Notes under the pieces: generated by a model
Database searches by the model: none
Seen by the model: the letters and a program-made list of their open reading frames with translations, nothing else
What the model was told of the DNA's origin: nothing
DNA from: Squalus acanthias
Lineage: Eukaryota
Reading direction: 5' to 3'
NCBI GenBank assembly: GCA_030390025.1
Contig: CM059431.1
Location: 156,614,001 to 156,678,000, forward strand
DNA length: 64,000 bases
In this document: positions 8,968 through 36,193 of the stretch, piece after piece
Layout of the letters: the number at the start of each line of letters is the position of its first letter
Position numbering within the stretch: the first letter of the stretch is position 1
Program-made: the position numbers and the translations under genes

Positions 8968-9055
8968 TTATTCTGTAATTACAGTCAAATGATCCGATAC
9001 ATTGACCGACTTCAGAATTTTCAGTCCTTCTGCAGATAATTGATTGTTTGTCAAA
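8968..9055 (-). CDS. NLR terminal LRR exon (S/LTNNQLSAEGLKILKSVNVSDHLTVITE*)
   Basis: Acceptor tttttcag at 9056-9057, LxxNxL LRR motif, TAA at 8968-8970. Confidence 0.8.
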
Positions 9056-9299
9056 CTGAAAAATATTAAAATAACGAAAAAATTATTAGCAATCAGGAGT
9101 GGATTCTTCCGTTCACTGTCAGCACTGATATTATTAAATTCATTCGAAATAAATGTGTTTAATCATTTAAGGAGATAAATTCTCCACAATAAAATGATTT
9201 CATTTTTCCCATATCAAGTCCATTCCAATTAAAATACCGAAAATGCATTTTACACGTGAAAGAAGATTTAATTAATCAATAGATAACCCGGAAACTCAC

Positions 9300-9491
9300 C
9301 TGATTTCCTTGAGATTAGCTCTACTCTTGATGAGACGGCGCATTGACGGAACAGAATCGTCAGTCAGTCTGTTGGCCTGATCGTCATCCTGTTTGTCATT
9401 ACTCAGATCCAGTTTCATCAGTGAACCGTTTGCACGGAGGGCAGAGACCAGATTTTTCATGCAATCATCTGTGAGATCGTTAGCTTTTAAC
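9300..9491 (-). CDS. NLR LRR exon, 192 bp (LKANDLTDDCMKNLVSALRANGSLMKLDLSN...NRLTDDSV...LKEI)
   Basis: ttgcag acceptor, AG|gtgagt donor, phase 2-2, RI-like LRR consensus. Confidence 0.9.
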
Positions 9492-9759
9492 CTGCAATGA
9501 TAGAAAAATAAACAGAAATTATATAAAACGTGCAAACATTAATATATACATCACTTGCTAATAATTACTGTGAAATTCCATTATCGCATGCAGAAAACTT
9601 TTTATGAAAAATGAATGTTTTTCCTGTTTCTAAATAATTTCCGTCTTAATGTAAATTAAATAGTGAGCTGCCTGAACATCAGCCACACACTAAATAGAAT
9701 TATTATAGATAAATAACTTTCTAGTTGTGCTGTTCGATATTTTAAACATAATTACTCAC

Positions 9760-9846
9760 TCCAGTCGCCGTATTTTACAATAATTTTTCTTCAGAACGGC
9801 AGAGAGCCGTTTCACTCCCGAATCTCCCAGTTTATTCTCATTGAGT
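9760..9846 (-). CDS. NLR LRR exon, 87 bp (LNENKLGDSGVKRLSAVLKKNYCKIRRLE)
   Basis: tttag acceptor, GA|gtgagt donor, phase 2-2, classic LGDSGVK RI-like LRR; too short for the ORF track. Confidence 0.9.
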
Positions 9847-10719
9847 CTAAACACAAATAAACAATATCTGTAATTAACAGGTAGCAATGCAACAGATAGG
9901 AAATATTCGTAATTAAATAATGCATTTAACGTGGGACGCTTTGGGCATCCAAGACGCGAATATAAGACCCGTAATTCAAATTCAATTCTATGACTTGCTT
10001 TAAATTATTGAGATATAGCGCATGCGGTCAAATCAGTGACGATCACAAAGTATAATTGTTTTACCGGAAGTTACTCTATTGCCCCTGGTCATGATTTAGC
10101 CATAGATTATAAAATTATTTCTTTTAAAGTAGGCACTGAGTGGTTGGAAGATTAAATGCTGCAAATCGTAGTCTGTAACGAAGAGGAATCCACGACATAT
10201 GTCTCTCACAAGACGATTCTCTTCATTAAAAGGCGAATTTAAGGTAAAATTGGAGACCGTCCCTTTGATCTTGTCTCTATTTTAGGAAAGTTATCTATTT
10301 GATACATTGAGGTTCACAAATGCTCTTAAATCATCCACAAGTCTATTGGAGAATCCACTGATGGGGATTGTAACAGATCGCTCGAATGTGCATCAGAGCA
10401 GGTGGAATGACATTGCCTCTCACTTTTCTTCCCTCCGGACCTCTGATGATGCCTTGGCACAGCAGTACGGCTGCAGAGAGTACTCAGAATTTGAGGAATC
10501 GCTGACGCGAACTCACATCTAACTGTCTCACTTGGCATCATTGAGCTTAACAACAACATTATTGTTTCGGCAAATCTGATATGATCGAGGAACTGGGAAA
10601 TTTAGAAAAGTACAGTTAAATCTCGGTTATAAATTATTCAAACTGCAAAATATAACAATGTTGTTTGTTTACAGTTTAAAATAAAACAGATATTATGTCA
10701 CTGACAATGTGCCAGTGGC

Positions 10720-11020
10720 ACAAGGGTCAGCAAGCAGAGGACATCGATTTAAGGTAATTGGCTAAAAAGCAGGAGGTGACATGAGGAAAAACATTTATGG
10801 AGCGAGTTGTTGTGATCTGGAATGCCCTGCCTGAAAGACTGGTGGGATCACATTCAGTAGTAGCTTTCCAAAGTGAATTATATAAATACTTGAAACGGAT
10901 TAGTATGCAGGTCTATGGGGAAATACAGGGAGGGGGACTAATTGGATAGCTCTTTCGAAAAACCGGCACTAGCACGATGGGTTCTACGGCCTCCTTCTAT
11001 GCTGTACGATTCTGTGAATC
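10720..11020 (+). mobile_element. CR1 3' end fragment
   Basis: RGHRFK / WNALP-type remnants and a CR1 3' UTR with tail. Confidence 0.75.
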
Positions 11021-11149
11021 TGTGAAATGGCGTAGTTTCCCCAATATATCATGATTAAAGGGTAGGGGAATATATCTTCCTGATTAAACGGATTCTCCGG
11101 TTGTTGCAAAGAGTGCGATGGATTCCAATGTAAAATTGCCAACGTCCAA

Positions 11150-12405
11150 TCTACATAGATACATAGAACAGTACAGCACAGTACAGGCCCTTCGGGCCTC
11201 GATGTTGTGCCGAGCATTGTCCGAGACCAAGATCAATCTATCACACTCCCTATCACTCTGGTGTGCTCCTTGTGCTTATCCAATAACCGCTTGAAAGTTC
11301 CTAAAGTGTCCGACTCCACTATCACAGCAGGCAGTCCATTCCACACCCCAACCACTCTCTGAGTAAAGAATCTACCTCGGACATCCCTTCTATATCTCCC
11401 CCCATGCACCTTATAGTTATGCCCCCTTGTAACAGCTGCCTCTACCCGAGGAAATAGTCTCTGAACATCCACTCTATCTATCCCCCTCATCATCTTATAA
11501 ACCTCTATTAAGTCGCCTCTCATCCTCCTCCGCTCTAAAGAGAAAAGCCCCAACTCCCTCAATCTTTCCTCATAAGACCTCCCCCCCCAAACCAGGCAGC
11601 ATCCTGGTAAATCTCCTTTGCACTCTTTCCAATGCTTCCACGTCCTTCCTATAGTGAGGTGACCAGAACTGCACACAATATTCCAAATGTGGTCTCACCA
11701 AGGTCCTGTACAGTTGCAGCATAACCTCACGGTTCTTAAACTCAAACCCTCTGTTAATAAACGCTAACACACCATAGGCCTTCTTTACTGCTCTATCCAC
11801 TTGAGTGGCAACCTTCAGAGATCTGTGGATATTAACCACCAGATCCCTCTGCTCCTCCACGTTCCTCAGAACCCTGCCGTTGACCCTGTAATCATTATTC
11901 AAATTTGCCCTACCAAAATGAATCACCTCGCACTTATCAGGGTTAAATTCCATCTGCCATTTTTCGGCCCAGCTCTGCATCCTATCAATGTCTCTTTGCA
12001 GCCTACAACTGCCCTCCACCTCATCCACTGCTCCACCAATCTTGGTGTCATCAGCAAATTTACTGATCTACCCTTCAGTCCCCTCCTCCAAGTCATTGAT
12101 AAAAATCACAAACAGCAGAGGACCCAGCACCGACCCCTGTGGCACACCGCTGGTAACTGGTCTCCAGTCCGAAAATGTTCCATCCACCACCACCCTCTGC
12201 CTTCTATGAGATAGCCAGTTACTTATCCAATCGGCCAAATTTCCCTCTATCCCACAACTCCTTACTTTCTTCATGAGACGACCATGGGGAACCTTATCAA
12301 ATGCCTTACTAAAATCCATGTATACGACATCAACTGCTCTACCTTCATCTACACATTTAGTTACCTCCTCAAAGAATTCAATCAAATTTGTTAGGCAAGA
12401 TCTAA
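11150..12405 (-). mobile_element. Relatively young 5'-truncated CR1 LINE in an NLR intron
   Basis: [35 protein letters not shown] motifs; few disruptions. Confidence 0.95.
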
Positions 12406-12620
12406 TTAAATGAGCAGCGCAGCAATTTTAGGTATTACCCGAACAGACACTCCGGTGCCGTGTCTAACGGTTCAATTTAGCACAGCAGAGAGTGGAATGA
12501 GTGAATGTGTTCATTAATTCATCGAATTCAATGTATGTTGTTGCTTTTACCTAAAATTATCCCACGTGCCATTAAAACAGTAGTTGTTTATAATGCTATT
12601 TAACGTATTCGGTGAATTAC

Positions 12621-14339
12621 CTGAGCATTTTACATTTGTGTAGCACGAGCTCCAACTGATGGATGCCTTCAACTTGTATTCAACAGGTACTAAGATTAAA
12701 CTCTTCAATCTGTTCAACGGCCATTAGTGCGTTTGACAGAACCGCACAGTCAGAAGGTTTAAGAGGGAACTGTGCGAATTTGATTGTCATTATCGATGTT
12801 ATTGCGGCCTTCATCAGTTGTATGTCTCCAAATTCATGAAAATAATGCAATATTTTAAGAATGTTCTTTGGCTTTGCCCATCTTCCATGCCCTGAACACA
12901 AATTCGGACATTTTCTGTGAGCCAATCCGAAACACACGTGGGTGCCTCAGATGGAAATTCCCCCAATTTTCTTTTAAGCTGATCAGTTGAATTCCGTGAG
13001 GATAGACCGACAAGAAACCGTGAAAATGTCTTAAATCAGTCGTCAGTGCACACGTGCCATTCTGTGAGCAATCGTGTCAGATCATTTCCTGGTGTAATTG
13101 GATATTTCATCAGTGCAGCGACAAAGTCCCGCAAAACGGAATGAGTGAATGTGTCGACAACACTACACAGATCATTGTCTCGAATTTCTATCATAAACGC
13201 CGAGATAACATTGGAAAGTTCCAGCCTGTGGCGATTGATTTGTTCTTTCTTGAACACAACGTTTTTGTTGCAAAGTCCCTTGTACGCTAACTCGCCCAGT
13301 TTGAGCACCGTATCGCGAGAGGTCTTCGTCTCACAGCCGCATCTCTCCAAAAGGATTGTGACGTACGCAGAGAACACCCGTGTGCTGGTTATGACGAAAA
13401 ATGTTCTCCCCCGCGCTCCTTGTGCCCGTCGTGACTCGAATAATGAAGCGAGGATCGAGCAGTACAGAGGATTATAGCACATGGTGTGCAATGTCTCATT
13501 CTGCTCAATGTACTCAATTACATCTGTCGCAAACTGCTCATCTCCAAAATAAAGGCGAAAGTACTGTTTTATTTTCTCAGAGGTGAAACTCAGGATTTCC
13601 GCTGTTGGAATTATGTTGGCCTTTTCCAGATACCCCAGTTTCCACGGACGGCTTGTGATCAGTACTGAGCAACCTCTGAGCAGCTCTCCCTGTATGAGAC
13701 AGCGCACGATGTCTGACACATCACAGCAGCACTCAGGACCGAAACACTGATATTGGGGTTCGTTGTTTCTCTGAAGATCTGTGAAATCGATGGGTTGCCG
13801 AAATTCATCTAAATCATCAAACATGAACAATATTTTTTCGGGTTTTTTCCACAAAAGTTCCAACTCAATTTCGAAATCGGGGTAGGAATCCAGGATCAGG
13901 CTATTTAGACATGTTTTTCCTTTTATTAAATTCAGTTGTTGAACTTTAAAAGGGAAGACAAATTTAAACTCTTGGTATATCTTCACTGCGGCCCAATCAT
14001 GGATTATCTTCTGCATCATGGTGCTTTTCCCAATCCCCGGGGCCCCAATTACCGCAGTTGTCCCCGACCTGCCTGATTCAGCGAAACTCAACAGTTGATC
14101 CAGCTGAATCACCTCCAGTTCATTTTCGATGTTTTCCCTCTGTAATTCTTCACGCTCTCTACCTCGGGCCTGCAGTTCATTTCCCACCAGTCTCCGCTCA
14201 CGCAGGGAATGACCAATCGTTACATTAGTATATTTTTCATCCAGAAAATATCTTCGGGATCTTTCTTTCTCTACAGTGGTTTTGACTGTTATTTTCTCGT
14301 TCTGTTTGCGGAGAGTGTCTTTGTGCTGTCGTTCTATCT
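12621..14339 (-). pseudogene. NLR NACHT exon (FISNA-like region, NACHT, helical domains, first LRR)
   Basis: Starts IERQHKDTLR; Walker A GAPGIGKS, Walker B ILFMFDDLDEF, sensor-1 VLITSRP, CYNPLYC, FTHSVLRDFVAA; after the stop at 13036 homology continues (FSRFLVGLSS; ILHYFHE; KPSDCAVLS; LHKCKMLR) to an AG|gtaatt donor. Confidence 0.93.
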
Positions 14340-14649
14340 CTTGAATATGAACAAAGTCATTGGTGTCGTCATTGTAATTCAGGAGAAATATATTTAACAG
14401 ATCAGTGCTATGAAGGAGATAATAAACTTCAAGAAATATAAAAAAAACAATTTGTCTCAGGAATGAGTGATCCCTTAATTATTTTACACTTTGCTGCCCA
14501 GGCCCTCATAGAATAAAAACAAATTAAATTTCTGAAGTGCCAGGAAAATGTAGCATGAAGCAAGCTTGAGGAATGTGGGCCGTTTGCTGTTGGATTTTGA
14601 GCTCCAATAATGAAAAATTCGAAACTTCGATATAAATTGCAAAGTAAAT

Positions 14650-15045
14650 GTTGCTGCTATTTTATGTCCACAGGCCAGCTGGGTTATGAACGACTCCTGG
14701 TTTCGTCGTGTAACAAACGATGTTGGGGAACCGCGGGTCTGGGCAGGAAAGGAGTACCTTCATTACATTCTAACCCCGGGGATTGCATTTGTTCTGATTC
14801 TGCTGCTCAATGCTTTAACCGTTAGAAACATTTTAGTGGCCAGGGGAGCCAGCAGAAGTCTACGGGGTCAGAGCAGTGGGGAAAATCGCAGAGACCCAGA
14901 GATGGAGAGCCGAATGAAATCCGTCATTTTACTGTTTGTTAGGTTTGGAAATTTCAAATTCTTATGATCAGTCTTTATGGTGTCTTATATTTGGTGGCTA
15001 ATCTGTTTTTTTGCGTATCAGTCTGTATTACTACCTAGTTTTTTT
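14650..15045 (+). pseudogene. Fragment (TM5-ICL3-TM6) of a GPR139-like rhodopsin-family GPCR
   Basis: LHYILTPGIAFVLILLLNALTVRNILVA...GENRRDPEMESRMKSVILLF resembles the shark GPR139-like family; internal stop at 14965-14967; no TM1-4 recognised. Confidence 0.75.
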
Positions 15046-15894
15046 TTAAGAAGTTTGCTATTCTTTTCTTTATATATCTGCACACACACAAAAGTATTTA
15101 CAAGTATATATACAAAAAATACAGATGTAAACATACATTGGTATCAAAATATGAATTTACCATTTTTTGAAGCGCAGTGGAGATTTCTTAAACCCACAAA
15201 TACTGGTAATGCCCATGGTGAATCCTCCGCTCCAAATAGGTAAACACATTATGAGGCCACAGCAGGACAAAAACGGCATCAAGTCAGGCCGGCCGGTATT
15301 CAGTTCTATTGGTAAATGAAAGGCAACATCGGACCGAGCCCATAACGGGCGGCAGATGTAACACCGGACGTTTTACTTCCCCGCCCAATTCAATTTGCAT
15401 CCACATGATGTTAAACTAACCAATTTCACAATAAGTCAGAACCAGTCAGCTTGCCTACATGCACTGCCACGTTGATGAATGAAAAATTGAATTTCGATAC
15501 GTTTACTAAAATATGGCATGTAAATTGTGCGATATCAATAACGTTTTGCGAAACAAGTCGAAATAATCCGTACTGACCTCATTCTATGTTATGTCATTGT
15601 TTGGTTATGTTGTAATTTTAGAGTTGTCAAATATAAGTGATACGGGCTGAAATTGGACATGGGTGGGGGACGCAATAAAACCTGTTATTGCATCGACCGC
15701 CTGTTATAAGCTCCGCCCAATATTCAAATCCATTGACTTTAATAGAACCGATAATCAGGCGTGTGTTCGAAGTATTTCAACAAGCTTTCTACCCTAAAAT
15801 CCAGTATGAGCTTCAGTGTCAAATTATGTTTGCAACTCGGGATGGTTTACTTCGTTAATGGCGCTATTTAAATACAAGTTGTTGTTGATCTCAG

Positions 15895-17575
15895 GTGCGT
15901 ATGCGGATTTACAGCGTATCAGGATCCTCACATTTGTGTTCAATGATTAACAGCGTGTCTACATTCATCCATTTTAAGAGAGTATCAGGATCCTGCCGGG
16001 TGTGTATAGTATTTCTTTGTGTTTCGGGATCCTGCCAGGTTGTGTATCGGGATTCACAGTGTAACAGGATCCTGCCAGGTGTGTATGGGTTTTCACAGTG
16101 TATCGGGTTCCTGCCAGGTGTGTATTCGGATTCACAGTGTGTGAGGTTAATGACAGGTGTTAATGGGGTTTCAAACTAAATCAGGATCCTTCAAGTTATG
16201 TCATAGAGTCATAAACTCATAGAGTCATAACGGCAGAGAAGGTGGCCATTCGTCCCATGGAGTTCCTGCTGGCTCTCTGTAGAGCGAACCACTCAGTCTC
16301 ATTCCCCCGCTCTATTCCCTTAGCCTTGCAAGTTTATTTCCCTCAAGTGCCTATCGAGTCTCCCCTTGAAAACATTGAGTGTGTCCGCTTCCAACATTTC
16401 CGTCGGCAGCGAGTTCCAGGTCCTCACCACTCGCTGCGTAAAAAAAGTATTTCCTCACGTGCCACCTGCCTCTCTTGCCCGAGACCTTAAATCTGTGTCC
16501 CCTAGTCCTTGTACCATCAACTAGTTGGAACAGCTTTTCCCCGTCTAGCCTATCCATACCCGGCATAATCTTGTACACCTCAATCAAATATGTATGCAGT
16601 TTCACTGTATATCGTGATATGCCAGTTGCGTGTGGCCTTCCAAAGCGTATCCGGCTCCTGTTAGGAATGTATGGGGTATCACATTTTGTCGGTTTCAATT
16701 GTGGTATTTACGTTTTTAACAGTTTGTCAGGATCCTACCAATTGTATATACGTATTCGCAGTTTATCAGGATTCTACTGGTGATGTTCATGGATTCAAAG
16801 CGTATAAGGATCCTGTCTGGTGTATTTGGGGTTTCAGATTGTAACGAGATTCTGCGAAATATATATGGGTTTTTAAATTATTTTCTGATTCCGCCACATG
16901 TGTAAGGGTTTATACAGAATATATGGAATCCTGCTAGGTGTGTATATGTTTCCCAGTGTATAGGTATCGTGCCAGTTTTTTTATGGGGTTTCACAGTGTA
17001 ACAGGATCCTACCACGTGTACGTATGTGGTTTCACAGTGTAACAGAATCCTAACTGGTGTGTATGGGATTTCAAAGTATTTCAGGATTTGGAAGATAGGC
17101 AATCGGTTTTTTAATATTCACATTTCTGCTTGATGTCTATTGGGTTTCACAGTTTATTGTTTCCTGCTAGGTTTATATTGTTGTTCAAAGTGCATCAACA
17201 TACTACCTGGCAGGGTTTGGTGTTCGCCAGTGTATCGGGATCCTGCATCGTGTGTATGGGGATTCACAGTGTATCGGGATCCTGCCTTGTGGGATTCAGA
17301 GTGTATCGGGATCCTGCCAGGTGTGTAAGTTGTTCACAATATATCAGGAACCGCCACGTCTGTATAGGGTTTCACAATGTGTGAGGTTATTGAAAGTGTT
17401 GACGGGGTTTCAAAGTACATCTGGATCCTTCAAGATATGTTTGCGATTTCACTTTACTCGTGATATGACATTTGCTTGTGGGCTTTCAAAGTGCATTATG
17501 ATCCTGCCAGGAATTTATGGCTTTTAACATTTTGTCGGTATCATTTCAGTTATCTACGGGTTTAGCTGTGTACAG
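15895..17575. repeat. 39-bp minisatellite array (same family as 100-870), interrupted by a CR1 3' fragment
   Basis: Repeated GGATCCTGCCAGGTGTGTATGGG units. Confidence 0.85.
16200..16590 (-). mobile_element. CR1 3' end inserted in the minisatellite
   Basis: LIEVYKIM..RTRGHRFK motif and (TCATAGAG)n tail. Confidence 0.85.
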
Positions 17576-17599
17576 AGAATGATTTAATAATGTGGGCTT

Positions 17600-20500: not shown

Positions 20501-21800
20501 AACAAAAACCCACAAGGAAAGTGTCCAACCGTGGTTAACAAGAGAAGTTAAAGATAATATTACATCAAAGGAAGAGGCTTATAATGTAACCAAAAGAGTA
20601 GTAAGCCTGAGGATTGGGAGGATTTTAGAATTCAGCATAGAAGTACCAAGAAATTGACTAAGAAATGGAAATAGAGTATGACAGTAAATTAGCGTGAGAT
20701 ATAAAAACAGGCTGTAAAAGCTTCTATAGTTGTGTTAAAAATAGCAAAGCTTAGCGAAATTAAATGTGAGTCCTTTACACGCTGTGACAGGATCAATTAC
20801 AATGTGGAATAAGGAAATGGCAGAGAAATTAAAAAAATACTTTGTGTCTGTCTTCAGGGAAGTAGACGAAAAAAACTTCCCAAAAATACTGCAGAACCAA
20901 GCATCTAGCAAGATGAGGAACTGAAAGAAATTAGGATTAGTAAAAAAAAAGTACTGCAGAAATGAAGAGGACTGATTGCCGATGGCCTGATGGCCTACAT
21001 CTCAGGGTTTTCAAAGAGTTGGCAATAGAGATCGTGGATGCATTGGTTGTCATTTTCCAAAATTCCATAGGTTGTGAAACGTTTCCCATGGATTGGAAGG
21101 TAGCAAATGTAACCCCACTATTTAAGAAAGGAGGGAGAGAGAAAACGTGGAAATACAGACCAGTTAACCTAACATCAGTAGTGGGGAAAATGCTAGAATC
21201 TATCATTAAGGTCGTGGTAATAGGGCACTTATGAAACTATAATAGAATTGGGCAGATTCAGCAGGGATTTATGAAAGGGAAATCGTGTTTGATGAATCTG
21301 TTACAGTTTTTTGTGGTTATAACTAACAGAATCGATAAGGGTGAACCAGTGGATATGTTGCATTTGTTTTTTGAGAAGATATTCGATAAGGTGCCACAGC
21401 GGAGGTTATTAAACAAAATTAGTGCTCATGGATTGGGGGCAATATACTAGCATGGATTGAGGAGTGGTTAACGGACCGAAAAAAGAAATCAGGAATAAAC
21501 GGGTCATTTTCGGGTTGGCAGGCTGTACCTATGGGGTACCGCAAGTATCAGTGTTTGGGCCTCAGCTATTCATAATCTACATCAATGAATTGGATGAGGG
21601 GACCAAATGTAATATATCCAAGTTTGCTGATGATACAAAACTAGGTGGGGATGTAAGTTGTGAGGAAGATACAAGGTGCCTTCAAGGGGATATAGATAGG
21701 CTAAGAGAGTGTGCAAGGAATTTCAAATGGCACATAATGTGGAGAAATGAGAAGTTATTCACTTTAGTTGGGAAAATAGAAAAGCAGAGAATCTTTTGAA
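17600..21800 (+). mobile_element. Old near full-length CR1 (ORF1 zinc finger/esterase remnant and ORF2 APE-RT), interrupted by a MITE
   Basis: MWAF..HVCSKC, LPLSNRYE, CLTGARV, LVHVG ORF1 remnants; WKVANVTPLFKKG and FADDTKL ORF2 motifs; many stops. Confidence 0.85.
19438..20172. mobile_element. Non-autonomous DNA transposon (Harbinger/PIF-like MITE)
   Basis: GGCC termini, interrupts CR1 endonuclease sequence, internal similarity to 32466-33228. Confidence 0.65.
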
Positions 21801-23889: not shown

Positions 23890-25515
23890 CATAACGTCCT
23901 TCCTGTTGTATTCTATGCCTCTATTTACGAAGCTCAGGATACTTTATATATTTAACTGCTTTCTCAACCTGCCAACTTCAACGATTTGCGTACATGCACA
24001 CCCAGGTCTCCCTGCTGATTCACCCCCTTTAGAATTGTGCCCTTTAGTTTATATTGCCTTTCCTCGTTATTCCTCCCACAATGTATCAAGTGGCACGTTT
24101 CTGTGTTAAATTTCAGCTGTAAGGAGAACACCATTCCAGCAGCCTATCTCTGTCATCTTGAATTATATCACTACTCTCCTCAATGTTCAATATACTTTCA
24201 AGTTGCGTGCCATCAGCAAATCTTGAAATTGTGCACGGTACAACCAAGTCCAAGTCATGAACATATCTATCCAGAAAAGCAGTGTTCCTAGTACCGACTC
24301 CTGAGAAATACCACTGTATACCTTCCTCCAGTCCGCATAACAACTTTTGTCCTAAATGTCTTACCCCTTATCCTTAGACTGTGACCACTGTTTCAGGACT
24401 CCCCGACCATCGGGAACATCCTTCGGGTGGGGCCGGGTTCGGGTCGGGTGGGGCCGGGTTCGGGTGGGGTCAGTTCGGGTGGGGCCGGGGTCGGGTGGGG
24501 TCAGTTCGGGTGGTGTCGGGTGGGGCCGGGTTCGGGTCGGGTGGAGCCGGTGTCGGGTGGGGCCGCGGTCGGGGTCGGGGTCGGGTGGGGCCGCGGTCTG
24601 GTGGGGCCGGGGGTGGGGCCGGGGTCGGTGGCGGGTCGGGCGGGGCCACTGCTCTCTGTTTTCTGCCACTTAGTAAATTTCATATCCATGCTTCCACTGC
24701 CACTTTTATTCCGTTTGTTTCGACATTGTTGACAAGCCTATTATATTGCAATTTTTCAAACGCATTTGGAAGTCCATGATCACCACATCAACCGCATTGC
24801 CCTCACCACCTTCTCTGTTACTGCATCAGAAAACTCCACCAATTTAGTTAAACACGGTTTGCCTTTGCCATTCCGTGCTTACTTTCCTCAATCAATCCAC
24901 ACTTGTCCAAGTGATTGTTAGTTTTGTCCCAGATTATCTTTTCTAAAAGTTTCCCCACTACCGATGTTAAACTGAATGATCTGTAGTTGCTGGGTTTAAC
25001 CTTAAACACTTTTTGGAACAAGGGTGTAAAATTCCAGTACTTCTGTCCTCTGGCACCACCACCGTATCTCAGGAGAATCAGAAGATTATGGCCAGTAACT
25101 CCGCAATTTCCACCCTTACCGCCCTTAGTATCCTAGGATGCATCCCATCTGGTCCTGGTAACTTCTCAACTTTAAGTTTAGACAGCCTTTCGGGTACCTC
25201 CTCTTTATCAAATTTATATTCCATCCAGTATCTCAACTACCTCCGCTTTCACTTTGACTTTGCCAGCATCTTCTTTCTTGGTGAAGACAGATGCAATGTA
25301 CACATTTAGTACCTTCGCCATGCCCTGTGCCTCCATACGTAGGTGTCCTTTTCGGTCCCTCATCGACCCACTCATACACTTACCACACGTTTCCTATTTA
25401 TATGCCTATAGAAGACTTCTGGATTCCCTTCCATGTTAGCTGCCAGTCTATTTTCATAGTCTATCTATGCCTCTCTTATATCGGTTTTTCCTTCCCGTCT
25501 TAAATTTCTATCTTC
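23890..25515 (-). mobile_element. Old CR1 RT fragment (paralogous copy at ~45110-47220)
   Basis: ISRFADGTQL-type remnants; shares its right junction sequence with the copy ending at ~47220. Confidence 0.75.
24425..24647 (+). repeat. G-rich low-complexity tandem repeat (GGGTGGGGCCGGGTTC-like)
   Basis: Dense runs of 3-5 G separated by 1-4 nt. Confidence 0.9.
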
Positions 25516-25532
25516 AGTTGCGATACAGCCCG

Positions 25533-25726
25533 TGTCGTAAGAATGAGCCTTACGCGTGGTGAATTTAAAGTAAGCTTTAATCTACTAAAAATGTGCTACA
25601 TACAAAAGATTTCTTACTCTATGCCTCTCCAGGATCCAACTAATCAGTCCAGTATTTATCCTGGACTAATCACAGGAAGTGATGCAATAAAGTTCGAGTC
25701 ACAGGAAGCTGTATTGTGTTACCACA
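25533..25726 (-). repeat. 3' LTR (194 bp)
   Basis: Direct repeat of 29783-29952; adjacent polypurine tract. Confidence 0.93.
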
Positions 25727-28700
25727 TTCTCCCCCCCCCCAAAAGATTAGGAGGCCGGGATGCTCCCTCCATTTCGTAGCCGCTGGACGAGGGAGAGCCG
25801 CACCCGTTTGGGTTCTCATTGCGGTAGAGGGCCCCTAGCCCGTTTACCCGCCGCGGGCCGTGGACCAGAGTCCGAGTGATCCAGCCCGCTCTGTGAGGGG
25901 TCAGGACGATCCTGACTGTGTACTGGTGCCCGAACGGGTGTCGGCCAGGGCTGTGGCAGATCCGTTTCCGAGCGTACGGTACGGGGTGGATCGTGGCTCC
26001 GCGTGCGAGCCCCGACGGGCTCCTAGTCAGTCTGCCCCAGGTCGGCACGCTGGAGTGAGGTACAAGCAGGCGTCAGATCCAGATCGTGTTGAGAGGCACC
26101 TGGCGAGCCCAGAGATGTGCCTGGTACAATATCATCCCCTGGTGTCCCTCTATGTTTCGGCGGGCAGGGAGCCAGATCCCGCAATGACACGGTAGATTCC
26201 CGACCGTCAGGATACCGAATATAGGCGTAGGTAGGGTTGACGTCAGTGAGCTCAACTTCATCTACCAGGGGGTCATTCTTAGATGCCCGGATATATCTTC
26301 GGAGTAGCACTGGTCCCGGTGCAGTCAGCCACGACGGGAGAGATATCCAATAGGATGAGCGATGCTGAAATCGGAAGAACCGTTCATGAGGCGTCGTATT
26401 TGTGGCGGTCGAAAGGAGGGACCGTGTGGAGTGTAATGCGTCTGGAAGTACTGCTTCCCATTGCTGGTTGGGTAGGCCCCGAGATCTCAAAGCCAGATGT
26501 ACCGCATTCCAGATGATAGCGTTAAAACGCTCGACTTGCCCATTCCCGACCGGATGATAAGGCGTCGTTCTGCTGGCAGCAATACCCCGTTCCGAGAGAT
26601 AGGCCTTGAGTTCTCCTGACATAAAAGAAGGGCCCCGATCCGAATGAACATAGGATGCCATGCCACAGAAAGCAAATACCTGCTCAAGGCAGCTGATAAC
26701 CGTGGCCGTCAGCATATTGGGGCAGGGAAAGGCAAACGGAAAACGGGAATACTCATCGACCATGGTCAACAGATTAGTTTTGCGAGTTGAAGAGGGCAAC
26801 GGCCCCTTAAAATCGATGCTAAGCCGTTGCATTGACTGGGTAGCATGTATGAGTATACCACCCGAGGAGCGGAAAAACTGAGGTTTCAATTCCGCACAGA
26901 CTCTGCAGTCCGAGCACATCTTCTTTACATCCCCAGCAGAGAATGGGAGATTTCGGGACCGCACGAAGTGTAGCATGCGAGTAACGCCCGGATGACACAA
27001 ACTATCATGGATGTCTACGAGCGTAGAGGGTGCCATGGCGGAGCAGAATGCTCGTGAGAGGGTATCCGGAGCCACATTCTCCTTGCCAGGTCGATAGTGG
27101 ATGGTGTAACCAAAAGAGGCCAATTCCAGCCGCCAAAGCTGGATTTTATTATTTTTAATGTTGGTCCGTTTTCGATTATCGAGCATGAAGGCGACCGATC
27201 GCTGGTCCGTGATTAAGGTAAAGTGCTGGCGAGCTAGGAGATGACTCCACTTCCGTACTGCCTCTATGATGGCTGTAGCTTCTTTCTCGACTGGAGGATA
27301 ATGTAGCTCAGCCCCTTGAAAAGTCCTGGACAAAAATGCCACCGGACGACCTTCCTGATTCAGAGTGGCCGAGATCGCCACCTCCGAGGCATCACACTCA
27401 ACAACAAAAGGAAGACTCTCATCGATGGAGTGAAGAGCCGCTTTCTCCAACTGTTTTTTCAGGAGGTTAAAGGTTGCAACAGTCGCTGTGTCTAGTGGGA
27501 ATGTGCTGGCCTTCAGTAGAGGTTGGATTCAGTCCGAGAAGTTAGGAATCCATTTAGCATAGTATGCAAACAGGCCGAGGGTCCGGCACTAGGAGGCCGG
27601 ATTCTTAGGTGGCGGGAGTTCTTGGAGTGGGCGACGCCTTTCAGGGTCAGGTTTAATGATGCCATTGCCCACACAATAGCCAAGGATGTTGATGGTTGGT
27701 TGTGACTCAATGGATTTAGCCGCATTTCATGTCAAATTACGGTGCTGGAGTGCATCCCAAAATCGTTGGAGATTGGCGTCATGTTCCCGCTGATTTCGAC
27801 CTGCGACAGTAATATTGTCCAGATAAGGAAACGTATCCATCAAGTCTTCCTGTTTGACCAGGTCATCCATTGCTCGCTGGAAGACAGCCACTCCATTAGT
27901 GACCCCAAAGGGGAGGCGACGAAATTGATACAGCCGTCCATTGGCTTCAAAGGCCGTATACTGCTTGTCTGAGACCTTCAAGGGTACCTGATGATAGGCA
28001 CTTTTCAGATCATATGTTGAGAACACCGTGTACTCAGCCAGTTTATTAACCATATCATCGATGCGCGGCAATGGGTATGCGTCCAAGTCCGTATATTGAT
28101 TGATGGTCTGTGAATAGTCAATGCACAGCCGTTTCTTGTGAGTTTGTAGAGGGTTCTTAACAATAACGACCTGGGCGCGCCATGGCGACGAACAAGGCTC
28201 GATGATATCCTCTGCTAAAAGCCGAGAAATCTCAGCCGCAATAAAAGACTGGTCTTCCTGACTGAAACGTCATGACTTTGTTATAATCGGTTTGCATCGA
28301 GGAGGGATACTGGTAAACAGTGAGGGTTCATCCAGTGAAGCTGCTGACAATGCACAGAACGGTAATCGAGGTCGTATATTAGAAATAGTGAGTTCAGGTT
28401 TGGATCTGCCGAACTCAATGGTGAGCTTCTTATGCTGCTTTTGAAAATCCAGCCCTAAGATAAGATCACTACATAAATCCTTGAGCACCGAAAGCCGGGT
28501 GGAGGGATACCTGTGACCATTAAGTGTTATTTCAACCATACAAAAGCCAGAAATTCTGGTATTAAATGATGACTGAGCCATCGCAATTGCCTGGTACGAT
28601 GGGAAAACATGTAGCTTTAACTCTGCAACAATCTGTTCCCTAATGAAACTATCAGTGCTACCTGAGTCAATTAAGGCATCTAAAGTATGTCCATTAATTG

Positions 28701-29782
28701 ATGCTTTTGTAGCTGCATGGAATAGGTTATGAGGACAAGCAGCTGTAATTGGTGTCGTTTCAAAAAGAGTGGCTGAAACTCTAGGTGTGTTTCTTCGAGA
28801 GGAAACCCGAGAGGAAGCACGATAGATGTTAGCCGGAACATCTTGATAGGCCCTTACCGGGGCAGTTCGGTAGGACTTAGCTTGATAAGCCCTCGTAGAG
28901 GCACTTGATAGGCAAACCTTTGCAAAATTACCCTTTTTGTTGCAATGACTGCAAAACGCATTGCGAGCAGGGCTGAATTTCCGAGGGTGAAACTCATCAC
29001 CACAAAAGAAGCATTTCTTAGATTGCCAAGAGGCTGCCACAGTGGGGTCATCATCCTCTTCATCAGTGAAGTCATCAGATTGATCGTCAGGGATGAGGAC
29101 CTCCCTAATAGAGTTCACCTGTGGCCTCTTAAATTGCCTGACTGTAGTTAAGGCAGTAGACCGAGGTCTGGGCACTGTATAAAGGTCTGCATTTCTTTTT
29201 TGCCAGATCTAGAGAGCAAGCCATGTCATAATCTCTCTGAAGCTCAAGTGTCTTACTTTCCAGTAGACGCTGGCGTATAAATGGGGAGGCAAGCCCGCAG
29301 ATGAAAGCATCACGGATCAGTTCTTCACGGTACAGCTCAGCTCAGGCCGCCTGAAAGTTACAGTCCATACTAAGTCTGCGAAGCTCTTGGAGGAATTTAT
29401 CAATGGATTCCTCCGGCCCTTGTTGGGCTGTAGCTAGTAGATGTCTGGCATAGACCTCATTCGGTGTCGTAGTATATAGTCTCTTAAGCGTCCGAATTGC
29501 CTCCTCGTAACTGCCCCATTCCTCCACATACTGAAATACATTCGGGGTGACACAGTTGATGAGTATCCGCAACTTTGAGTCATCATCAACCTTGCAATAC
29601 TCAAGAAAATTGTCAAACGTGCGATACCAGTGTTTCCACACCTTACCGGCTGCTGGGGTGTTTGAGTCCAAGTCAAGACGCGATGGTTTAAGGATGTTTT
29701 CCATGATGGGTGATTCCCTGGATCCTTCGTTCCAAGTTCGTCCAAAAAGTTTGAGTGCGACGTTTTCAAAAGTTGATTAAAT

Positions 29783-29952
29783 TGTCGTAAGAATGAGCCT
29801 TACGCGTGGTGAACTTAAAGTAAGCTTTAATCAAATAAAAAGGTGCTACATACAGAAGAGTTCTTACTCTATGCCTCTCCAGGATCCAACTAATCAGTCC
29901 AGTATTTATCCTGGACTAATCGAGTCACACGAAGCTGTATTGTGTTACCACA
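29783..29952 (-). repeat. 5' LTR (170 bp; lacks a 24-bp segment present in the 3' LTR)
   Basis: By-eye alignment shows about 7 substitutions and one 24-bp indel versus 25533-25726. Confidence 0.93.
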
Positions 29953-30218
29953 GCCCGTTTTTCGGTGATCATTTAATGCAGGCCGTATCTCGTCGATTGC
30001 CTATTATACACTGCGCCTGATTAAAAGTGAATTCAACTGATTTTCGAAAGTGTTTTATGACGGTCAGAAAATGCTATTGCCCCTGTTTTGTTTAACTGCC
30101 CATGTAGAAATTAATCCTCACAGACTTTAATTTAAAATAAAGTAATTGCAATAAATAATAAACGATTTCTCTTAGAGTATTCACCATCTTTTTAAAGTTA
30201 GATTTGTACACCACCTAC

Positions 30219-30417
30219 CTTTCAGGTCATTTTGAACCTCTGTACCACTGCTCTGTATCTCTGGCAATGTCGCTTTCAGCTTGGGTTTCGGATCCTGCAG
30301 TTGAAGAAATATGTTCCACATTCTTTTTTGCGCCCGAGCTCCCTTTTCTGCCACAATACTGACAATTTGTCGTGAAGCATCCCTTCTGCGGTCTCTTTCA
30401 ACAAGTTTTTGGATTCT
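30219..30417 (-). CDS. NLR exon, second half of the death-fold/CARD-like domain (RIQKLVERDRRRDASRQIVSIVAEKGARAQKRMWNIFLQLQDPKPKLKATLPEIQSSGTEVQNDLK)
   Basis: ttttag acceptor, G|gtaggt donor, phase 0-1, open frame absent from the ORF track; EKG.RA...MW..F..PKL...EIQ pattern of shark NLR N-termini; joins in frame to the NACHT exon. Confidence 0.85.
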
Positions 30418-32465
30418 CTAAAAAATATATTGCAGTCATATTGAGCCATGAAATGTAAATAATCAGATAAGTAACCTATTTTCACTTACTCCTTCTCTTT
30501 ATGAGAAGAATGAATAGAAAAGTTCACTATCGGGTGACCAGAAGCTGGGCCATACAGGTACAGTTTAAGGAGCTTCTAAAAGGAGGAGAGAGTGGTAGGT
30601 AGCCAGAGAGGATTAGCGAAGGAACTTCAGAGCTTAGGGCCGAAGCAGCTGAAGGCACTGTGAATAAAATAGGGGATGCGGAAAAGGCCAGAATTGGCTA
30701 AAACACAATGATTATCGATGGTTGTGGGGCTGGAGGAGTTTGCAGAGATAGAGAGGAGCAGCGTTAAGTCATCCAGGGAAATTGTATTTTCTCAGCTGAC
30801 AGAGTAATACGGTAAGGTGCTGATTAAAAGGGGAAACGTTACGTTTGCAGGAATAGGATTCGACCAAAATTAGGGATTATTGGTTGTTAATAACAGTAAT
30901 ATATTGTAATGCTAACGATGTGGTTTCAGAAACTCAAATTGCATTAATTGAAAACCATAAAGTTGTGTTTGAAATTAGTGCTGGTCAGAAGCACGAAATG
31001 GGCTGATAGCGAATCGGTGGCCCACTTTATGCCGCGTCCGATTTTCTTTCTAGTAACTTCCATGAGCCTTGAATTCTCTCTAAGTATCAGCTTCATTAAT
31101 CGAAACAGTTGCATAAACTTATCAGTCACTCCGTCATGCACTATATGAACATTGTGGTTTTCTTCTCTATGCAGCTGTTTCCTTTGATTAACTGCTTTAG
31201 TTGAGGTTTTTATGAAATGTGATCATTGTCTCTAATTCTATAACCTGCCATTTATTCATTTCTTACATTTTGAACGTGTTGGCTTCTGTTTTATATTCTT
31301 TATGTTTCCTTGGTTTGTTTTATATAATCAGCCCTGCAACCCCAGAATTATTTTAAAATATAATTTTTAATTCATATTCTATGCACGTCCAAGATATTCT
31401 AGTTTGTTCTTCACCTGTTTTATTTTCGTGTAATGTGTGTATCTTGTATGACAATATTCTCCTATTGGCAGGTTCCTTTTGCGTCAACGCGACTTTTTCT
31501 GATCATTAACCTGCCAATATATCTGGGCTAGTGTTTTAGTTTCGTTGTAATTAGTTTTATTCCTCTAAAATGTATATTGCTTTGATTGAACCGTTATCTT
31601 TTACGATTCATATGAATCCAAATGATATAATATTTTCCTAGATGTTCTACTACTGTTACCTCACCTCTAGCCCCACCCGCTTCTAGAAAATGTTCCGATA
31701 CTCATTCTTTTCATGTTGTCCTAAAACCGTAGCAATCTAAACAACGTAAGCTATAGGCTGCAAATACCTTGCCCTTTCTACCACACTTATCTTATTTCTA
31801 TCCTTTGGATATTAAAGTCACCAATCAATCTGTTACTGTTATTGCTACACTTTCACCAACGTTTCATTATTTATATTATCTATGCATTGCCCAAGATTCG
31901 ATGAATGATAATAGCACCTTATTATTCTGTAACCCCAAATGTATAGATTAATTTTGCGAAGCATTGCTTATACTAGTCCTGAGTTCCCGTGCTCCAATTG
32001 AATATTTTAGTAATTCCTTCTCCCTGTTTTTTTAAAAAACTTCATTCCCCATTAATGTTTAGTAACATGACACTTTAGCTCCTAATCTTGCCCTTACATA
32101 AGCCAGATTGCTATTAATATCTGTGCATCATAATTTATAGCATATCCCCAGAAAACCTAGGCCTTCAACTAACCAGCTATATTTGGAATAGTTTGTATAT
32201 ACATGTGTTAGGCAATTGTAGGAGGAATTCGGAAAAGCGAGCATGTGGACATTAGAGAGAGTCCATAGATTGTATTTATGGAATGGATCATTATGGCAGT
32301 CTTGACGGCAGAGGATTTTGAACGAGGAGAGGCCAGTATTAGTGACGACACTTAGCAGTGAGCCAAAGACGATGCAGGACCAAAGCTGGCAGGAATCAAG
32401 GCATTAGTTTGCATATCCAATAGAATGGATGAATGTTGCGAGTCCTTGTTGATACGTGAGATAAT

Positions 32466-33228
32466 GGCCCAGAAATTAAACAGTGAGGGTTTTAGCAGGG
32501 GTAAGGATTTCCCGCGATATCGCACTCCGCGCCTACCTTTTTGCACCGGGCCCACACGAACTTCAGTTTGAAAGGCTCTCTCTCTTGGAACCGTGCAGTG
32601 CTTGCGTGAACCAGAGACGCAATTAGTTCGTGCAAGCTCTGGGATCACGTGATTCAGTTAGAGCCAATGGCAGCACACCATCTTTCATTCATAGTTTTGA
32701 CAGGAAGACCTGTCAAAGCTATGAATACTACACCCCCCCAAAAGAACAGCTAAACCTCAATTAAATTTAAAAAATGCCATCACATTAATAAAATAAGTAT
32801 AGTTAAATAAATTAAGCACTTTAAACAAAAAATTAAATTTTTGAAAAAATTTAATATCTTTTTAAAAGATATAAAAATAAACTTACCTTTCTTTAAAGTC
32901 TCTAAAAAAGATAAACCTATTGAAAAATATTTTTAAAAACACTTAATTAACTACTTACCTTGTTAAAAGGGGGTCCTACGCCTGCTTTCTGTATGTGTAA
33001 AATCTTCACCACTTACCTGCGCGTTCAAAGCTGAAAAAATAACTAAGTGCACTGCGAGCGCACAGCCTGTAGCGCGCACGCTGTTCACTTAGGAACCGTC
33101 ACCGTTTCAACTCACGAAGTGCTGGTTTCCCGCGCATGCGCAGTGCATACAGGAAACCGGCAATTCTTGATCTAATACGCAAGAGTGCACAGTGCGTACT
33201 GTCGCGTATTAGGTTTAATTTTCGGGCC
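32466..33228. mobile_element. Harbinger/PIF-like MITE
   Basis: TIRs GGCCCAGAAATTAAAC / GTTTAATTTTCGGGCC, 3-bp TSD AAT, AT-rich centre, no ORF. Confidence 0.75.
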
Positions 33229-33859
33229 AATGCAGATTGTGAGAGGTTAGAAATTAAGAAAGTGTTTAGTTCGATGTAAATATTGTGACAGGGAATGTGC
33301 TAGAAAATCAGAGTGAGGCAGCCATGCTGTGATGTGCAAAGTTGCAGAGAAATCGAAGCAACGATTTGGATACGTTCACTAGAACTCTCTAGAGATCCGC
33401 GCCACCGACAGTGGCTCAAACCAATAAGATGGTTCACTGGAAAAACAGGACTGCTTTGATAGAGAATAAAGGGAAACTCAAGGGCTTTAATGCGACAGTT
33501 TAGCTTTTATACATCAGTAAATGTCTTCCGGTGAGATTAGAATTATGTCGCTATTACAAGTTTTATCTAACTCCAGAATTTCCTTTGGGGCTGAGCTGAG
33601 GACGCATGATGGTTACGCTGCTACTAAATTATTAAATTATTAATTTCGATTCGTCTGGGCTTGGCCCTTGCCATCCTGTAATTTGGGGTAATTGATCAAG
33701 TGATACGAAAGCCTCTATGTCCGCTTTCCGAAACTTCAATAAACCAATCCCATGCAGAAATATGGGCACTGAATTACCTTAACAGCGAGACGTTTCACAG
33801 TGAATTATCAGACCTGGTTTTAGTCCTGGCCCCCAGGTTGTTGATTGTGGCCGATTCGC

Positions 33860-34150
33860 CGATGGTAATGGCATTAAATATCAAGGGGTGCTGATGTGAC
33901 TCTCTCTTGTTCGAGATGTTCATTGCCTGGCACTTGATGTTGCGCAAATGTTACTTGCCACTTACCGGCCAAACCTAGATGTTGTCCAGGTATTGCTTCA
34001 TACGGGGACAGACTGCTTCATCATTGTTGGAATTGCGAATGGAGCTGATCACTGTGCAATCATTAGTGATCAGCCCCAATTCTGATCTTATGATAGATGG
34101 CCATTGAAGAAGCACTTACCGATAATCGGGCCTTGGACGCTGCCAAGAAG
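33860..34150 (-). mobile_element. LINE RT fragment, same family as 2408-2659
   Basis: Reverse-complement similarity to 2450-2600 (GATTGCACAGTG, GAAGCAGTC, CCTGGACAACATC). Confidence 0.6.
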
Positions 34151-34402
34151 CAAACATAATTATGCCATGAGATGATGTTCTCTCATTGCTTAATGCATTT
34201 TTTGAAGATTAAAGAACAAATTAGTTTACCAGAGATATATTTCAGAGGAGTACTTCAAATATTGTTTTCATTGGCATCGAACTCAATTTCAGCGTCACTA
34301 TTGAGTACGGCTTATATCGATGGGTTGCACGAAATACAATTAATCAAACTCTGACTCATGACTCATTTAACACTATAAGATTTCACCATATGTGTTGCAT
34401 AC

Positions 34403-34563
34403 CTCATGATCAGCTTCAGTAAAAACTTCTCCATCAAAAAGCTTCTGACTAACAGCCTCCACGTTTTCTTCAATTGCATGCTCTAGTCTCTGATGGCAGC
34501 TCTCGATAATTCTCCGCAGCTGGAAATCCGTGTCGCTCTGCAGCATCAGTAAGGTTTTAGTAT
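34403..34563 (-). CDS. NLR exon, first half of the death-fold/CARD-like domain (DTKTLLMLQSDTDFQLRRIIESCHQRLEHAIEENVEAVSQKLFDGEVFTEADHE)
   Basis: ttcag acceptor, GAG|gtatgc donor, phase 1-0; DFQL...RLE.AIEE.VE pattern of shark NLR N-termini. Confidence 0.85.
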
Positions 34564-35953
34564 CTGAATTTAATGTCAAGTTGTAAATGAGAACAGATTA
34601 AAATACTGAGCCCGCTATTAAACAATGAATTATCTGGACCAACTGATATAGCAACAGCTTTTATTAAGGCCTTTCAAGCAGTGATAACGCCAGTGGCGCC
34701 TCACAGAGGGGGAATTAAGAATCAATGCTGTCTCTTTTTGGTATAGTTCGGAGGAACGACCCAGGACTTGCAACATTTGGAGATTGGTTAAACTAAGTAA
34801 GAAGTAGAAAGAGGGTTGTCCTTAGGAATGGAGTCAGTGGGATTGACGTCTTTGCCTGGAGTGCAGAGCAGAAGAACCGATATACTAGAGACCACAGCGA
34901 AGGAGAAGTGTGTAACAGAGGGGTTGTTAACAAGACTGTAGGGTTAAGATGGGCGGGTCAGTAGATTTTGTTGAAGATCACTAGGACCATTTCACACATG
35001 ATCAGTTTGGGAGAAGAAGTTAATGTAAGTCAGTGACTAAGTATTTTACGGATGAATGGAACTGAGGGTGAATTTGAATTTATGCAATGGAGCTGTGGAA
35101 AAGCTGGAGCTCGGCACAAATGTCGTTTGAGGTATCCATTCTAAATCTCTCAAAAGCATCGATAAAGTACCAGCAAATTTTCATATGGAGTGCGTGGTCA
35201 GAAAATTAATCTATAATTGTTCCTGACGGTGATCTGAGACTCCAGTTTGAATTAATGCCTTGGAATCAGCAGATGCTGTTGAGCAATTAGACATAGACGG
35301 GCCTTTCACATGTTTGCTTGAAGAGCAAATAAATAATGTACAAATATTGGAAGTATGAAACATTAAATGCAACTTCATTCGTCCTTCTGTTTTTCCTTCT
35401 TTATTTCAAGGAAAATTAAATTTTGAAACAGGAACTGAGAAATGGAAAAATTGTGAAGCAAAAAGGCAGTCACAATAATCTTTACGATAATCAATACACT
35501 GAGTACAGGAAACAAAACATTGGGAAATTGTTTTCATTATCAATAGAAAATACTTACACAAAAACAGATACTTTAGCTTAGAAATGACTGCAGCAAGTAC
35601 AGTTCCACAATTAAATGTACCCGAGCATAAAACATCAAAGGAATGGGGCGAGGAGGGTGTTGGAGAAAGTCGTGAGAGGTAGCTCTGCTAAATAAATACA
35701 ATACCTCATCAACAACAACATAAACATTTATATGGCACCTTTAACGTTAAAAAAATATTGCAAGGCGCCTGAAGGAAGTTTTAATGAGGCGTGAACACAT
35801 ACATTCAGGCCGAAGAAAGTAATTGTAAGGGTTTAGGATGAATAACATTATTTGTAATCAAAAAAGTGCGTTTTAAGTAGACACTTAAGTAATTAACCGG
35901 GGTATAGAGGCGGAGGCATTGAGGGAAGGAATAACAGAGTGCGGGGTATGTAC

Positions 35954-36193
35954 CTCTTTCTCCACCGAAAATGTAACTCTCTTCTTCATTATTAGTATTT
36001 CCTGCATCACCAGTGCCCGGTATAGTGCCCGCATTGTTTGCCGCATCAAACTGTGCGTGATCTGTTCTGCGATGAGATCTCCGCTTTGCACACCAAAAAG
36101 TCACAACGATTACTAATACTTCCAGCAGTATTGCACCGATGAATGCGAGGGGAATTGTGAATGGTTCGTCCATTATTGCAGTCTCGTCAATCA
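35954..36193 (-). CDS. Candidate NLR N-terminal exon encoding one transmembrane helix (MDEPFTIPLAFIGAILLEVLVIVVTFWCAKRRSHRR...)
   Basis: tttacag acceptor, AG|gtacat donor, 240 bp open, phase 1 end matches the next exon; ~23 mostly hydrophobic residues followed by a basic cluster; both splice sites conserved in the paralog at 52130-52346. Confidence 0.65.

Follow-up and report, generated by a model that had tools for sequence, protein, structure and literature searches.

A predicted NLR clade with an N-terminal transmembrane helix in sharks and rays, and its inactivated copy in Squalus acanthias

The stretch of DNA analysed here (the window) comprises 64,000 nucleotides (nt) of Squalus acanthias contig CM059431.1, positions 156,614,001 to 156,678,000 (G000:C7:156.6 Mb, within a 3.7-Gb genome), and its minus strand carries an NLR gene model of seven exons. 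Comparison with homologous sequences suggests, with a probability of roughly 0.65, that this locus is an inactivated copy of an elasmobranch NLR clade whose N-terminal exon encodes a single membrane-spanning helix. The first-pass annotation of the window had proposed an NLR subfamily of cartilaginous fishes with a transmembrane (TM)-type helix before the CARD, NACHT and LRR parts; such an arrangement was found to be conserved and confined to one clade. From the sequences we infer that the exon is used in the mRNA of S. acanthias, that the helix inserts into a membrane of some compartment, and that the protein signals from there.

Gene model and domains of the window copy

All exons described in this section lie on the minus strand. 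The TM exon (36193-35954, 240 nt, phase 1-1, referred to below as the A type) is preceded by the acceptor tttacag and ends in AGAG before the donor gtacat; the exon, its hydrophobic segment and its phase-1 donor were found as first annotated. The exon reads IDETAIMDEPFTIPLAFIGAILLEVLVIVVTFWCAKRRSHRR..., with the ATG at 36173, and its full translation is IDETAIMDEPFTIPLAFIGAILLEVLVIVVTFWCAKRRSHRRTDHAQFDAANNAGTIPGTGDAGNTNNEEESYIFGGER. The product contains, in order, a short acidic N-terminus, the hydrophobic helix, the basic run KRRSHRR, the motif DHAQF, and an acidic EEESY tail. The candidate start ATG (36171..36173, context ATAATGG) is homologous to the start Met of the predicted proteins P0123, P0124, P0125, and P0298. 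The codons of the most hydrophobic 19-mer, which carries a Glu in the middle of the helix, occupy 36093..36149.

Downstream of the TM exon are CARD exon 1 (34403..34563, 161 nt) and CARD exon 2 (30219..30417, 199 nt), followed by a large exon of 1719 nt (12621..14339) that encodes a linker, the NACHT domain, the winged helix, HD2, and the first LRR. Two LRR exons (9760..9846, 87 nt; 9300..9491, 192 nt) and the last coding exon (8968..9055), which ends with LTVITE and then TAA, complete the model. Every intron is of the GT-AG type and every junction is in frame, including the junctions 35954^34563, 34403^30417, and 30219^14339 that had been proposed earlier. Counted from the ATG at 36173, the model has 2666 nt, that is, 888 codons and a stop when the missing base is counted; this reproduces the length of about 888 residues claimed for the repaired gene.

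The window copy itself is a pseudogene, probably inactivated recently; it has an in-frame TGA codon (13036..13038; AGA in the paralog on contig C2044) together with a 1-nt deletion in an A-run near 12856 (approximate site 12855..12857), which shifts the frame. The homopolymer deletion could be an assembly error; the nonsense codon remains even so.

Pfam searches of the large exon gave NACHT (3.5e-31, window:13039-14478) and NOD2_WH (1.9e-9), and the Walker A (GAPGIGKST) and Walker B (LFMFDDLDE) motifs can be read in the window frame. The LRR exons at 9846-9760 and 9491-9300 share 55-66% identity with the LRR part of the predicted relatives P0004, P0005, P0006, and P0010, and P0004 was matched by LRR_6 of Pfam (1.1e-6); no Pfam LRR match was obtained with the window LRR exons by themselves. 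Neither the window exons nor the homologs gave a Pfam match for an Ig domain.

The death-fold part is a predicted CARD split over two exons. The window half-exons share 39-52% identity with modules of P0004, P0005, and P0008 (46-52% for CARD exon 1). Residues 641-711 of P0008, within the module at 620-736, were matched by Pfam CARD with 40.4 bits against a cut-off of 23.9 (E 3.1e-10), and P0004 reached 16.7 bits (E 0.0075), under the same cut-off. Pfam CARD (PF00619) did not match the two window half-exons when each was scanned apart, and a phmmer search of one P0008 CARD module against PDB sequences gave nothing significant. An AlphaFold model was built for the whole isoform P0125 from a 39-row alignment; it describes a homolog, not the window protein. 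Its mean predicted local distance difference test score (pLDDT) was 78.6. The model has six helices at residues 53-66, 69-78, 80-100, 106-117, 121-135, and 137-149, with a pLDDT per 10-residue block of 44 at 51-60 and 64-90 over 61-150; six strand-helix LRR units follow at 687-850. The best three named ESM Atlas clusters for the death-fold part of P0125 were all CARD (score 0.75-0.76), which is to be taken as a lead only. No Pfam match for a pyrin domain (PYD) was found on the window exons or on six homologs; the NCBI names NLRP3-like and NLRP12-like therefore do not fit these proteins, in which a CARD was found instead.

Relatives in sharks, rays, and the S. acanthias genome

The NACHT exon search gave 201 proteins at E <=1e-30 among 6098 candidates, and the best 120 of these 201 were all from cartilaginous fishes. 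The ten closest relatives share 48-59% identity with the window NACHT exon, against 42-47% for the others of the best 120. A strong hydrophobic 19-mer before Walker A is present in six of these ten (P0002, P0004, P0005, P0006, P0008, and P0010). Among the remaining 110 of the best 120, no strong 19-mer was found; four proteins have a weak one, and one of these four models is fused to a 7-TM receptor.

The similarity extends through the TM exon. P0004 is 50% identical to the window over the NACHT exon, and its homologous TM segment, IEYTTEMDENSP...TFYLTKRKYKPKRDYAQL, can be set beside that of the window, IDETAIMDEP...TFWCAKRRSHRRTDHAQF. The corresponding segments are NEVTEKMEKT...CCFMKVKYKRRRSYNEL in P0005 and ...YCWMKKKYVPRTD in P0010. 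Common to the window exon, P0004, P0005, and P0010 is the pattern I-[DE]-x-T-x-x-M-[DE]-E, then the helix, then K-[KR]-[KR], and finally [RK]-x-D-Y-x-x-L. Word-indexed protein searches were less productive: the TM exon gave no match to longer proteins, and residues 70-250 of P0004 matched P0004 alone. A profile meant for the TM exon was in effect a whole-NLR profile of 863 positions, and it was used only to gather more NLR representatives. Searching 1.84 billion representatives with it gave five further TM models, from Pristis pectinata (P0148), Mobula hypostoma (P0152), Narcine bancroftii (P0168), Stegostoma tigrinum (P0164), and Chiloscyllium plagiosum (P0267). The conserved hydrophobic segment that had been expected in homologous exons is thus present in NCBI-predicted NLRs of at least nine shark and ray species, belonging to Heterodontus, Scyliorhinus, Mustelus, Stegostoma, Chiloscyllium (C. 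plagiosum), Pristis, Mobula, and Narcine.

Phylogenetic trees were built from the NACHT region only. In a quick IQ-TREE analysis of 61 rows, in which long branches were flagged, the window, C2044, and P0002-P0011 formed a clade of 12 (Shimodaira-Hasegawa-like approximate likelihood ratio test 100). All eight helix-bearing rows fell inside this clade and none of the 49 rows outside it had the helix; label shuffles as clustered as this occurred in 0/500. The FastTree analysis of 44 rows, with rays added, gave a clade of 19 (support 100) that holds all 11 helix-bearing rows, including three rays, against 0/25 outside. Inside this clade the helix label needs seven changes, and 6/500 shuffles were equally low. 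These trees indicate that the helix is a trait of one elasmobranch clade, probably with losses, or with exons missing from some of the models.

Elsewhere in the S. acanthias genome, 17 DNA matches and eight protein matches to the TM exon were reduced to nine near-full copies. Four are of the A type (the window, C2044:265458, C7:155775966, and C7:157340328), with a hydrophobic run of 19-22 residues and a central Glu or Asp. The other five (B type) begin with MF(G/V/R)RYS followed by 10-18 hydrophobic residues, and four of the five precede, by 3.5-23 kb, an A-type copy of the same strand. The indel events among the nine copies measure 12, 3, 9, 18, 12, and 24 nt, all multiples of three, versus one event of +1; the 24-nt indel deletes a donor site, and the +1 indel belongs to the window B copy. 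On comparison of these copies, the pattern looks as expected of a coding exon. An intact paralog was sought and found on C2044, where the same seven exons with canonical sites give an uninterrupted frame of 884 amino acids from the homologous ATG. This copy may be either a paralog or a divergent haplotype. At C7:155.74-155.79 Mb, a third locus shows the order B, CARD, A, CARD, NACHT, LRR, with a frameshift in the NACHT exon, and the fourth TM-exon locus is truncated.

The first-pass annotation had also reported that the TM exon and both of its splice sites are kept in an upstream paralog. The splice sites are indeed kept in the B-type copy at 52130..52346 (minus strand); the exon itself, however, is decayed. 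Its frame is broken because its length is 217 nt, two stops lie near the 3' end, and its hydrophobic run is interrupted and shortened to about 10 residues. An orphan copy of CARD exon 2, with an open frame and AG/GT sites, lies at 47502..47693 on the same strand, and no CARD exon 1 match was found between it and the B exon. The upstream copy was considered as a second gene and rejected because the 64-kb window contains no second NACHT exon; it is a decayed cassette or fragment, not a gene.

The CARD half-exons are themselves highly repeated. Together they form a 360-nt phase 1-1 module, of which over 100 copies (110 and 150 matches) are arranged in tandem on the same strand over C7:153.7-159.6 Mb. 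One such array, of about 13 modules, extends from C7:153,719,776 to 153,796,574 and sits just upstream of a NACHT exon at 153,798,536. Such modules could be strung into multi-CARD proteins (P0005 has three CARDs and P0008 has five), or they could be used as alternative cassettes.

The hydrophobic helix, its orientation, and competing explanations

Hydrophobicity was scanned over 19-mers with the Kyte-Doolittle scale and a summed Hessa-type score. The window 19-mer LAFIGAILLEVLVIVVTFW has a mean Kyte-Doolittle value of 2.59 and a Hessa-type score of -1.4. A score of -1.0 was reached by only 2/234 stop-free frames of at least 70 residues in the window, the TM exon among them; since so few long open frames hold a comparable 19-mer, the occurrence of such a segment by chance is unlikely. 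The remaining A-type copies score 0.3, 1.3, and 3.6. In the window the 15 residues before the helix have a net charge of -4 and the 15 after it +4. The N flank is -3 to -5, the C flank is +4 in the window, C2044, and copy L003, and the C flanks of the orthologs are +3 to +5. These charges support an orientation in keeping with the positive-inside rule, in which the NLR body lies in the cytosol.

Some smaller features vary around the helix. The juxtamembrane Cys, proposed in the first-pass annotation as a possible palmitoylation site, is present in the window, C2044, L003, P0005, P0010, P0002, P0148, and P0152, and absent from L004, P0004, and P0123-P0125. After the helix, the relatives have a YxxL motif (DYAQL, DYVQL, or SYNEL), which is degenerate in the window copy (DHAQF); the motif would fit endocytic sorting. 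An acidic residue within the helix was observed in this genome (LLEV/LLDA), in Scyliorhinus torazame P0008 (LLEV), in Mustelus P0006 (LFEV), and in Narcine P0168 (VVDF).

The first-pass annotation had read the protein as a type III anchor that starts at the Met at 36173. This stands insofar as predicted isoforms of two species, S. torazame (P0123, P0124, and P0125) and Stegostoma tigrinum (P0298), begin at the homologous Met (MDEN... and MEESSK...). However, signal-peptide-like starts followed by an ectodomain of 40-95 residues are predicted in P0004, P0122, P0127, P0005, P0010, P0295, and in 9/9 Mobula isoforms. Because of these isoforms, the conserved phase-1 acceptor, and the conserved residues before the Met, a type I topology appears equally possible. 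In its full form the type I explanation holds that the Met at 36173 is internal and that an upstream exon gives a cleavable signal peptide and a short ectodomain, partly Cys-rich or glycosylated. The frame is open from acceptor to ATG in 9/9 exon copies, and conservation between genera extends to the residues ahead of the Met (VIDETAIM, VIEYTTEM, and VNEVTEKM). The signal-peptide-like isoforms come from S. torazame, Mustelus, Heterodontus, Mobula, and Stegostoma, and the ectodomain of P0295 (Stegostoma) has N-x-S/T sites. In one variant the upstream exon may be the B-type exon, with the A exon as stop-transfer anchor; the B exons share the phase-1 donor, so that B to A joins in frame. Nevertheless, B and A are paralogous copies of one exon, with CARD exons between them in 3/4 loci, and the N-terminal signal-peptide and ectodomain parts of P0004 and P0005 matched nothing in the S. 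acanthias genome. With isoforms starting at the Met predicted as well, the full type I explanation is considered tentative. Both topologies put the CARD, NACHT, and LRR parts in the cytosol.

Several findings weigh against a membrane-anchored clade. All the relatives are automatic, predicted gene models; among them, isoform P0121 skips the helix exon and P0139 starts after the helix. In concatenated models, of which P0008 is an example (four CARDs, helix, CARD, NACHT), the helix has CARDs on both sides, an arrangement that is implausible as a membrane topology; these models may merge alternative cassettes. In the AlphaFold model of P0125 the helix at 10-27 has a pLDDT below 50. The helix of L003 holds two acidic residues (it is the copy with the score of 3.6), and L004 has lost the basic flank (C flank -1). 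The hydrophobicity scan also gives false positives: 10/17 matches among the representatives were a buried NACHT motif. In the S. acanthias genome the four A-type and five B-type exon copies stand against at least 22 close NACHT exons, and C2044 is the sole intact linked gene found. Introns and NACHT exon alike show about 96% identity between the window and C2044; in the TM exon the identity is 91.7%, and most differences there alter the residue (translations read by eye). This pair gives no signal of purifying selection, because its exons differ as much as its introns.

A further observation concerns the scans themselves. Many NLRs (P0216, P0218, P0238, P0250, P0279, and others) have a very hydrophobic motif of the form MCxxPxxCWxxC about 180 residues past Walker A. 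The motif scores helix-like in simple scans and is a trap for TM calls in NLRs.

In a second competing explanation, the hydrophobic exon would lie outside the working protein, as an untranslated region, a rarely used exon, or a repeated annotation artefact, and the clade would consist of ordinary cytosolic NLRs. The isoforms lacking the exon (P0121 and P0139) and the two closest copies with no exon-intron contrast agree with this, as does the absence of the helix from 4/12 clade rows in the IQ-TREE analysis and from 8/19 in the FastTree analysis. On the other hand, a single NACHT clade, and no other, preserves the hydrophobic run, the basic flank, and the K-K/R-K...D-Y motif in both sharks and rays; moreover, the indels among the copies are in frame and a comparable helix is rare by chance. 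That the exon is no part of the working protein is considered rather unlikely. Three small sequence runs mapped to window:32401-52400 at 85% likeness covered only repeats, with a depth of about 0 at the A exon, CARD exon 1, and the B exon, and were uninformative on expression.

Another explanation concerns the compartment. In signal anchors of the mitochondrial outer membrane, as in Tom20, a short N-terminus precedes a helix of moderate hydrophobicity, and the C-flank is basic. If the helix were such a signal anchor, the CARD-NLR would be placed beside MAVS-type platforms and not in the secretory pathway. The helix is moderately hydrophobic with a Glu or Asp in its middle, 3/4 A-type copies have a net +4 in the 15 residues after it, and only eight residues precede it when the protein starts at the Met. 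However, the signal-peptide-like N-termini of the relatives and the N-x-S/T sites of their ectodomains point to the secretory pathway. A mitochondrial location is rather improbable.

For working members, such as the C2044 protein, the favoured mechanism can be outlined as follows. Translation would start either at the Met corresponding to 36173 (type III) or in a signal-peptide exon further upstream (type I). In the inserted helix the short acidic end would face the lumen or the outside and the basic end the cytosol, so that the CARD, the NACHT NTPase, and the short LRR would be held on the cytosolic face of the membrane. A ligand or stress might then cause NACHT oligomerisation and CARD-CARD recruitment of an adaptor or caspase, as in other CARD-type NLRs. 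Anchoring by an encoded helix would take the place of the lipidation-based recruitment of NOD1 and NOD2.

The short ectodomain, the mid-helix acidic residue, and the YxxL motif also allow a more specific speculation, in which these proteins would be transmembrane signalling subunits that pair with a receptor bearing a basic helix residue, like DAP12 or CD3-type chains. This would wire extracellular recognition directly to an intracellular CARD-NACHT oligomerisation platform. We know of no vertebrate NLR that pairs in this manner, and the proposal is regarded as very unlikely.

Certain Heterodontus francisci members of the clade lack the helix and start with MGNCCG (P0299) or MGGGSSKKK (P0142 and P0300). 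The former resembles a myristoyl/palmitoyl motif and the latter a myristoyl/basic membrane motif. These acylation-like starts hint that membrane attachment might be a conserved need of the clade.

Comparison with known NLRs and other features of the window

Vertebrate NLRs are regarded as soluble cytosolic sensors; NOD1, NOD2, and NLRP3 need to arrive at membranes, via lipidation or basic patches, before signalling. The closest match to the window gene in known annotation is a group of S. torazame models, P0123, P0124, P0125 (XP_072354253-55 and XP_072354259), and P0004 (XP_072354258), which are named 'NACHT, LRR and PYD domains-containing protein 12-like'. They have the same order as the window: M-D-E, helix, basic flank, DYAQL, one CARD, NACHT, and short LRR. 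They differ in being predictions only and in a helix with no mid-membrane acidic residue; the window copy, in turn, is broken. The names 'NLRP3-like' and 'NLRP12-like' thus conceal a distinct architecture in public annotation.

NOD1 and NOD2 resemble the window family in their CARD-NACHT-LRR design, in the NOD2-type winged helix, and in working at membranes. According to two reports, both are S-acylated by ZDHHC5, which brings them to the plasma membrane and endosomes (PMC10769251; 10.64898/2026.09.30.755683). They are soluble and reversibly lipid-attached, whereas the window family would be fixed by its encoded helix; moreover, its NACHT domain is nearer to the shark 'NLRP3-like' expansion than to NOD1 or NOD2. 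This expanded family is the sister group in the NACHT trees, shares 43-47% identity, and has the same large NACHT exon and LRR exons; however, none of its sampled members has the N-terminal helix (0/49 in the IQ-TREE and 0/25 in the FastTree analysis). The whale shark genome paper described a novel expanded NLR family, and it does not mention transmembrane NLRs; of its two uses of the word 'transmembrane', one concerns 7-TM receptors (PMC8455134).

NLRs with membrane-spanning segments have been reported in invertebrates. Anthozoan NLRs with three to five N-terminal TM domains were described in an actiniarian paper, which regards all other metazoan NLRs as cytosolic (PMC5094078). The sea cucumber proteins AjNLRC4 and AjNLR-new are Ig-TM-NACHT proteins, one of them with an extracellular NACHT, and localisation of the sea cucumber protein to the cell membrane was reported (PMC13133943). 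The invertebrate proteins are like the window family in that NACHT is joined to membrane-spanning segments. They differ in that the window family has one helix and no Ig match, whereas the anthozoan proteins have several TM domains and the sea cucumber proteins have Ig; neither group has a CARD beside the helix. The transmembrane NLRs of invertebrates and elasmobranchs are of independent origins. No description of transmembrane or membrane-anchored NLRs in sharks or other vertebrates was found in the literature, subscription journals not being covered, and the TM-helix clade is apparently an undescribed variant of a known family. If the anchor is real, a clade across sharks and rays whose genes encode it would amount to a natural experiment, indicating that membrane placement, and not solubility, was selected. 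Such a clade could also serve as a simple system in which to ask which membrane is the relevant one.

The window also contains features outside the gene model. Within the 16-kb intron that separates CARD exon 2 from the NACHT exon, the region 26023-29776 (minus strand) has open frames of 501, 180, 312, and 144 amino acids, which by eye are retroelement-like (gag, protease, reverse transcriptase, and integrase-like). Frames resembling the reverse transcriptase of long interspersed nuclear elements, also judged by eye, lie on the plus strand at 38357-41966 and 56194-58961. Finally, the region 24356-24779 is G+C-rich and of low complexity on both strands; it is open in several frames and contains repeats such as GWGRVRVG.

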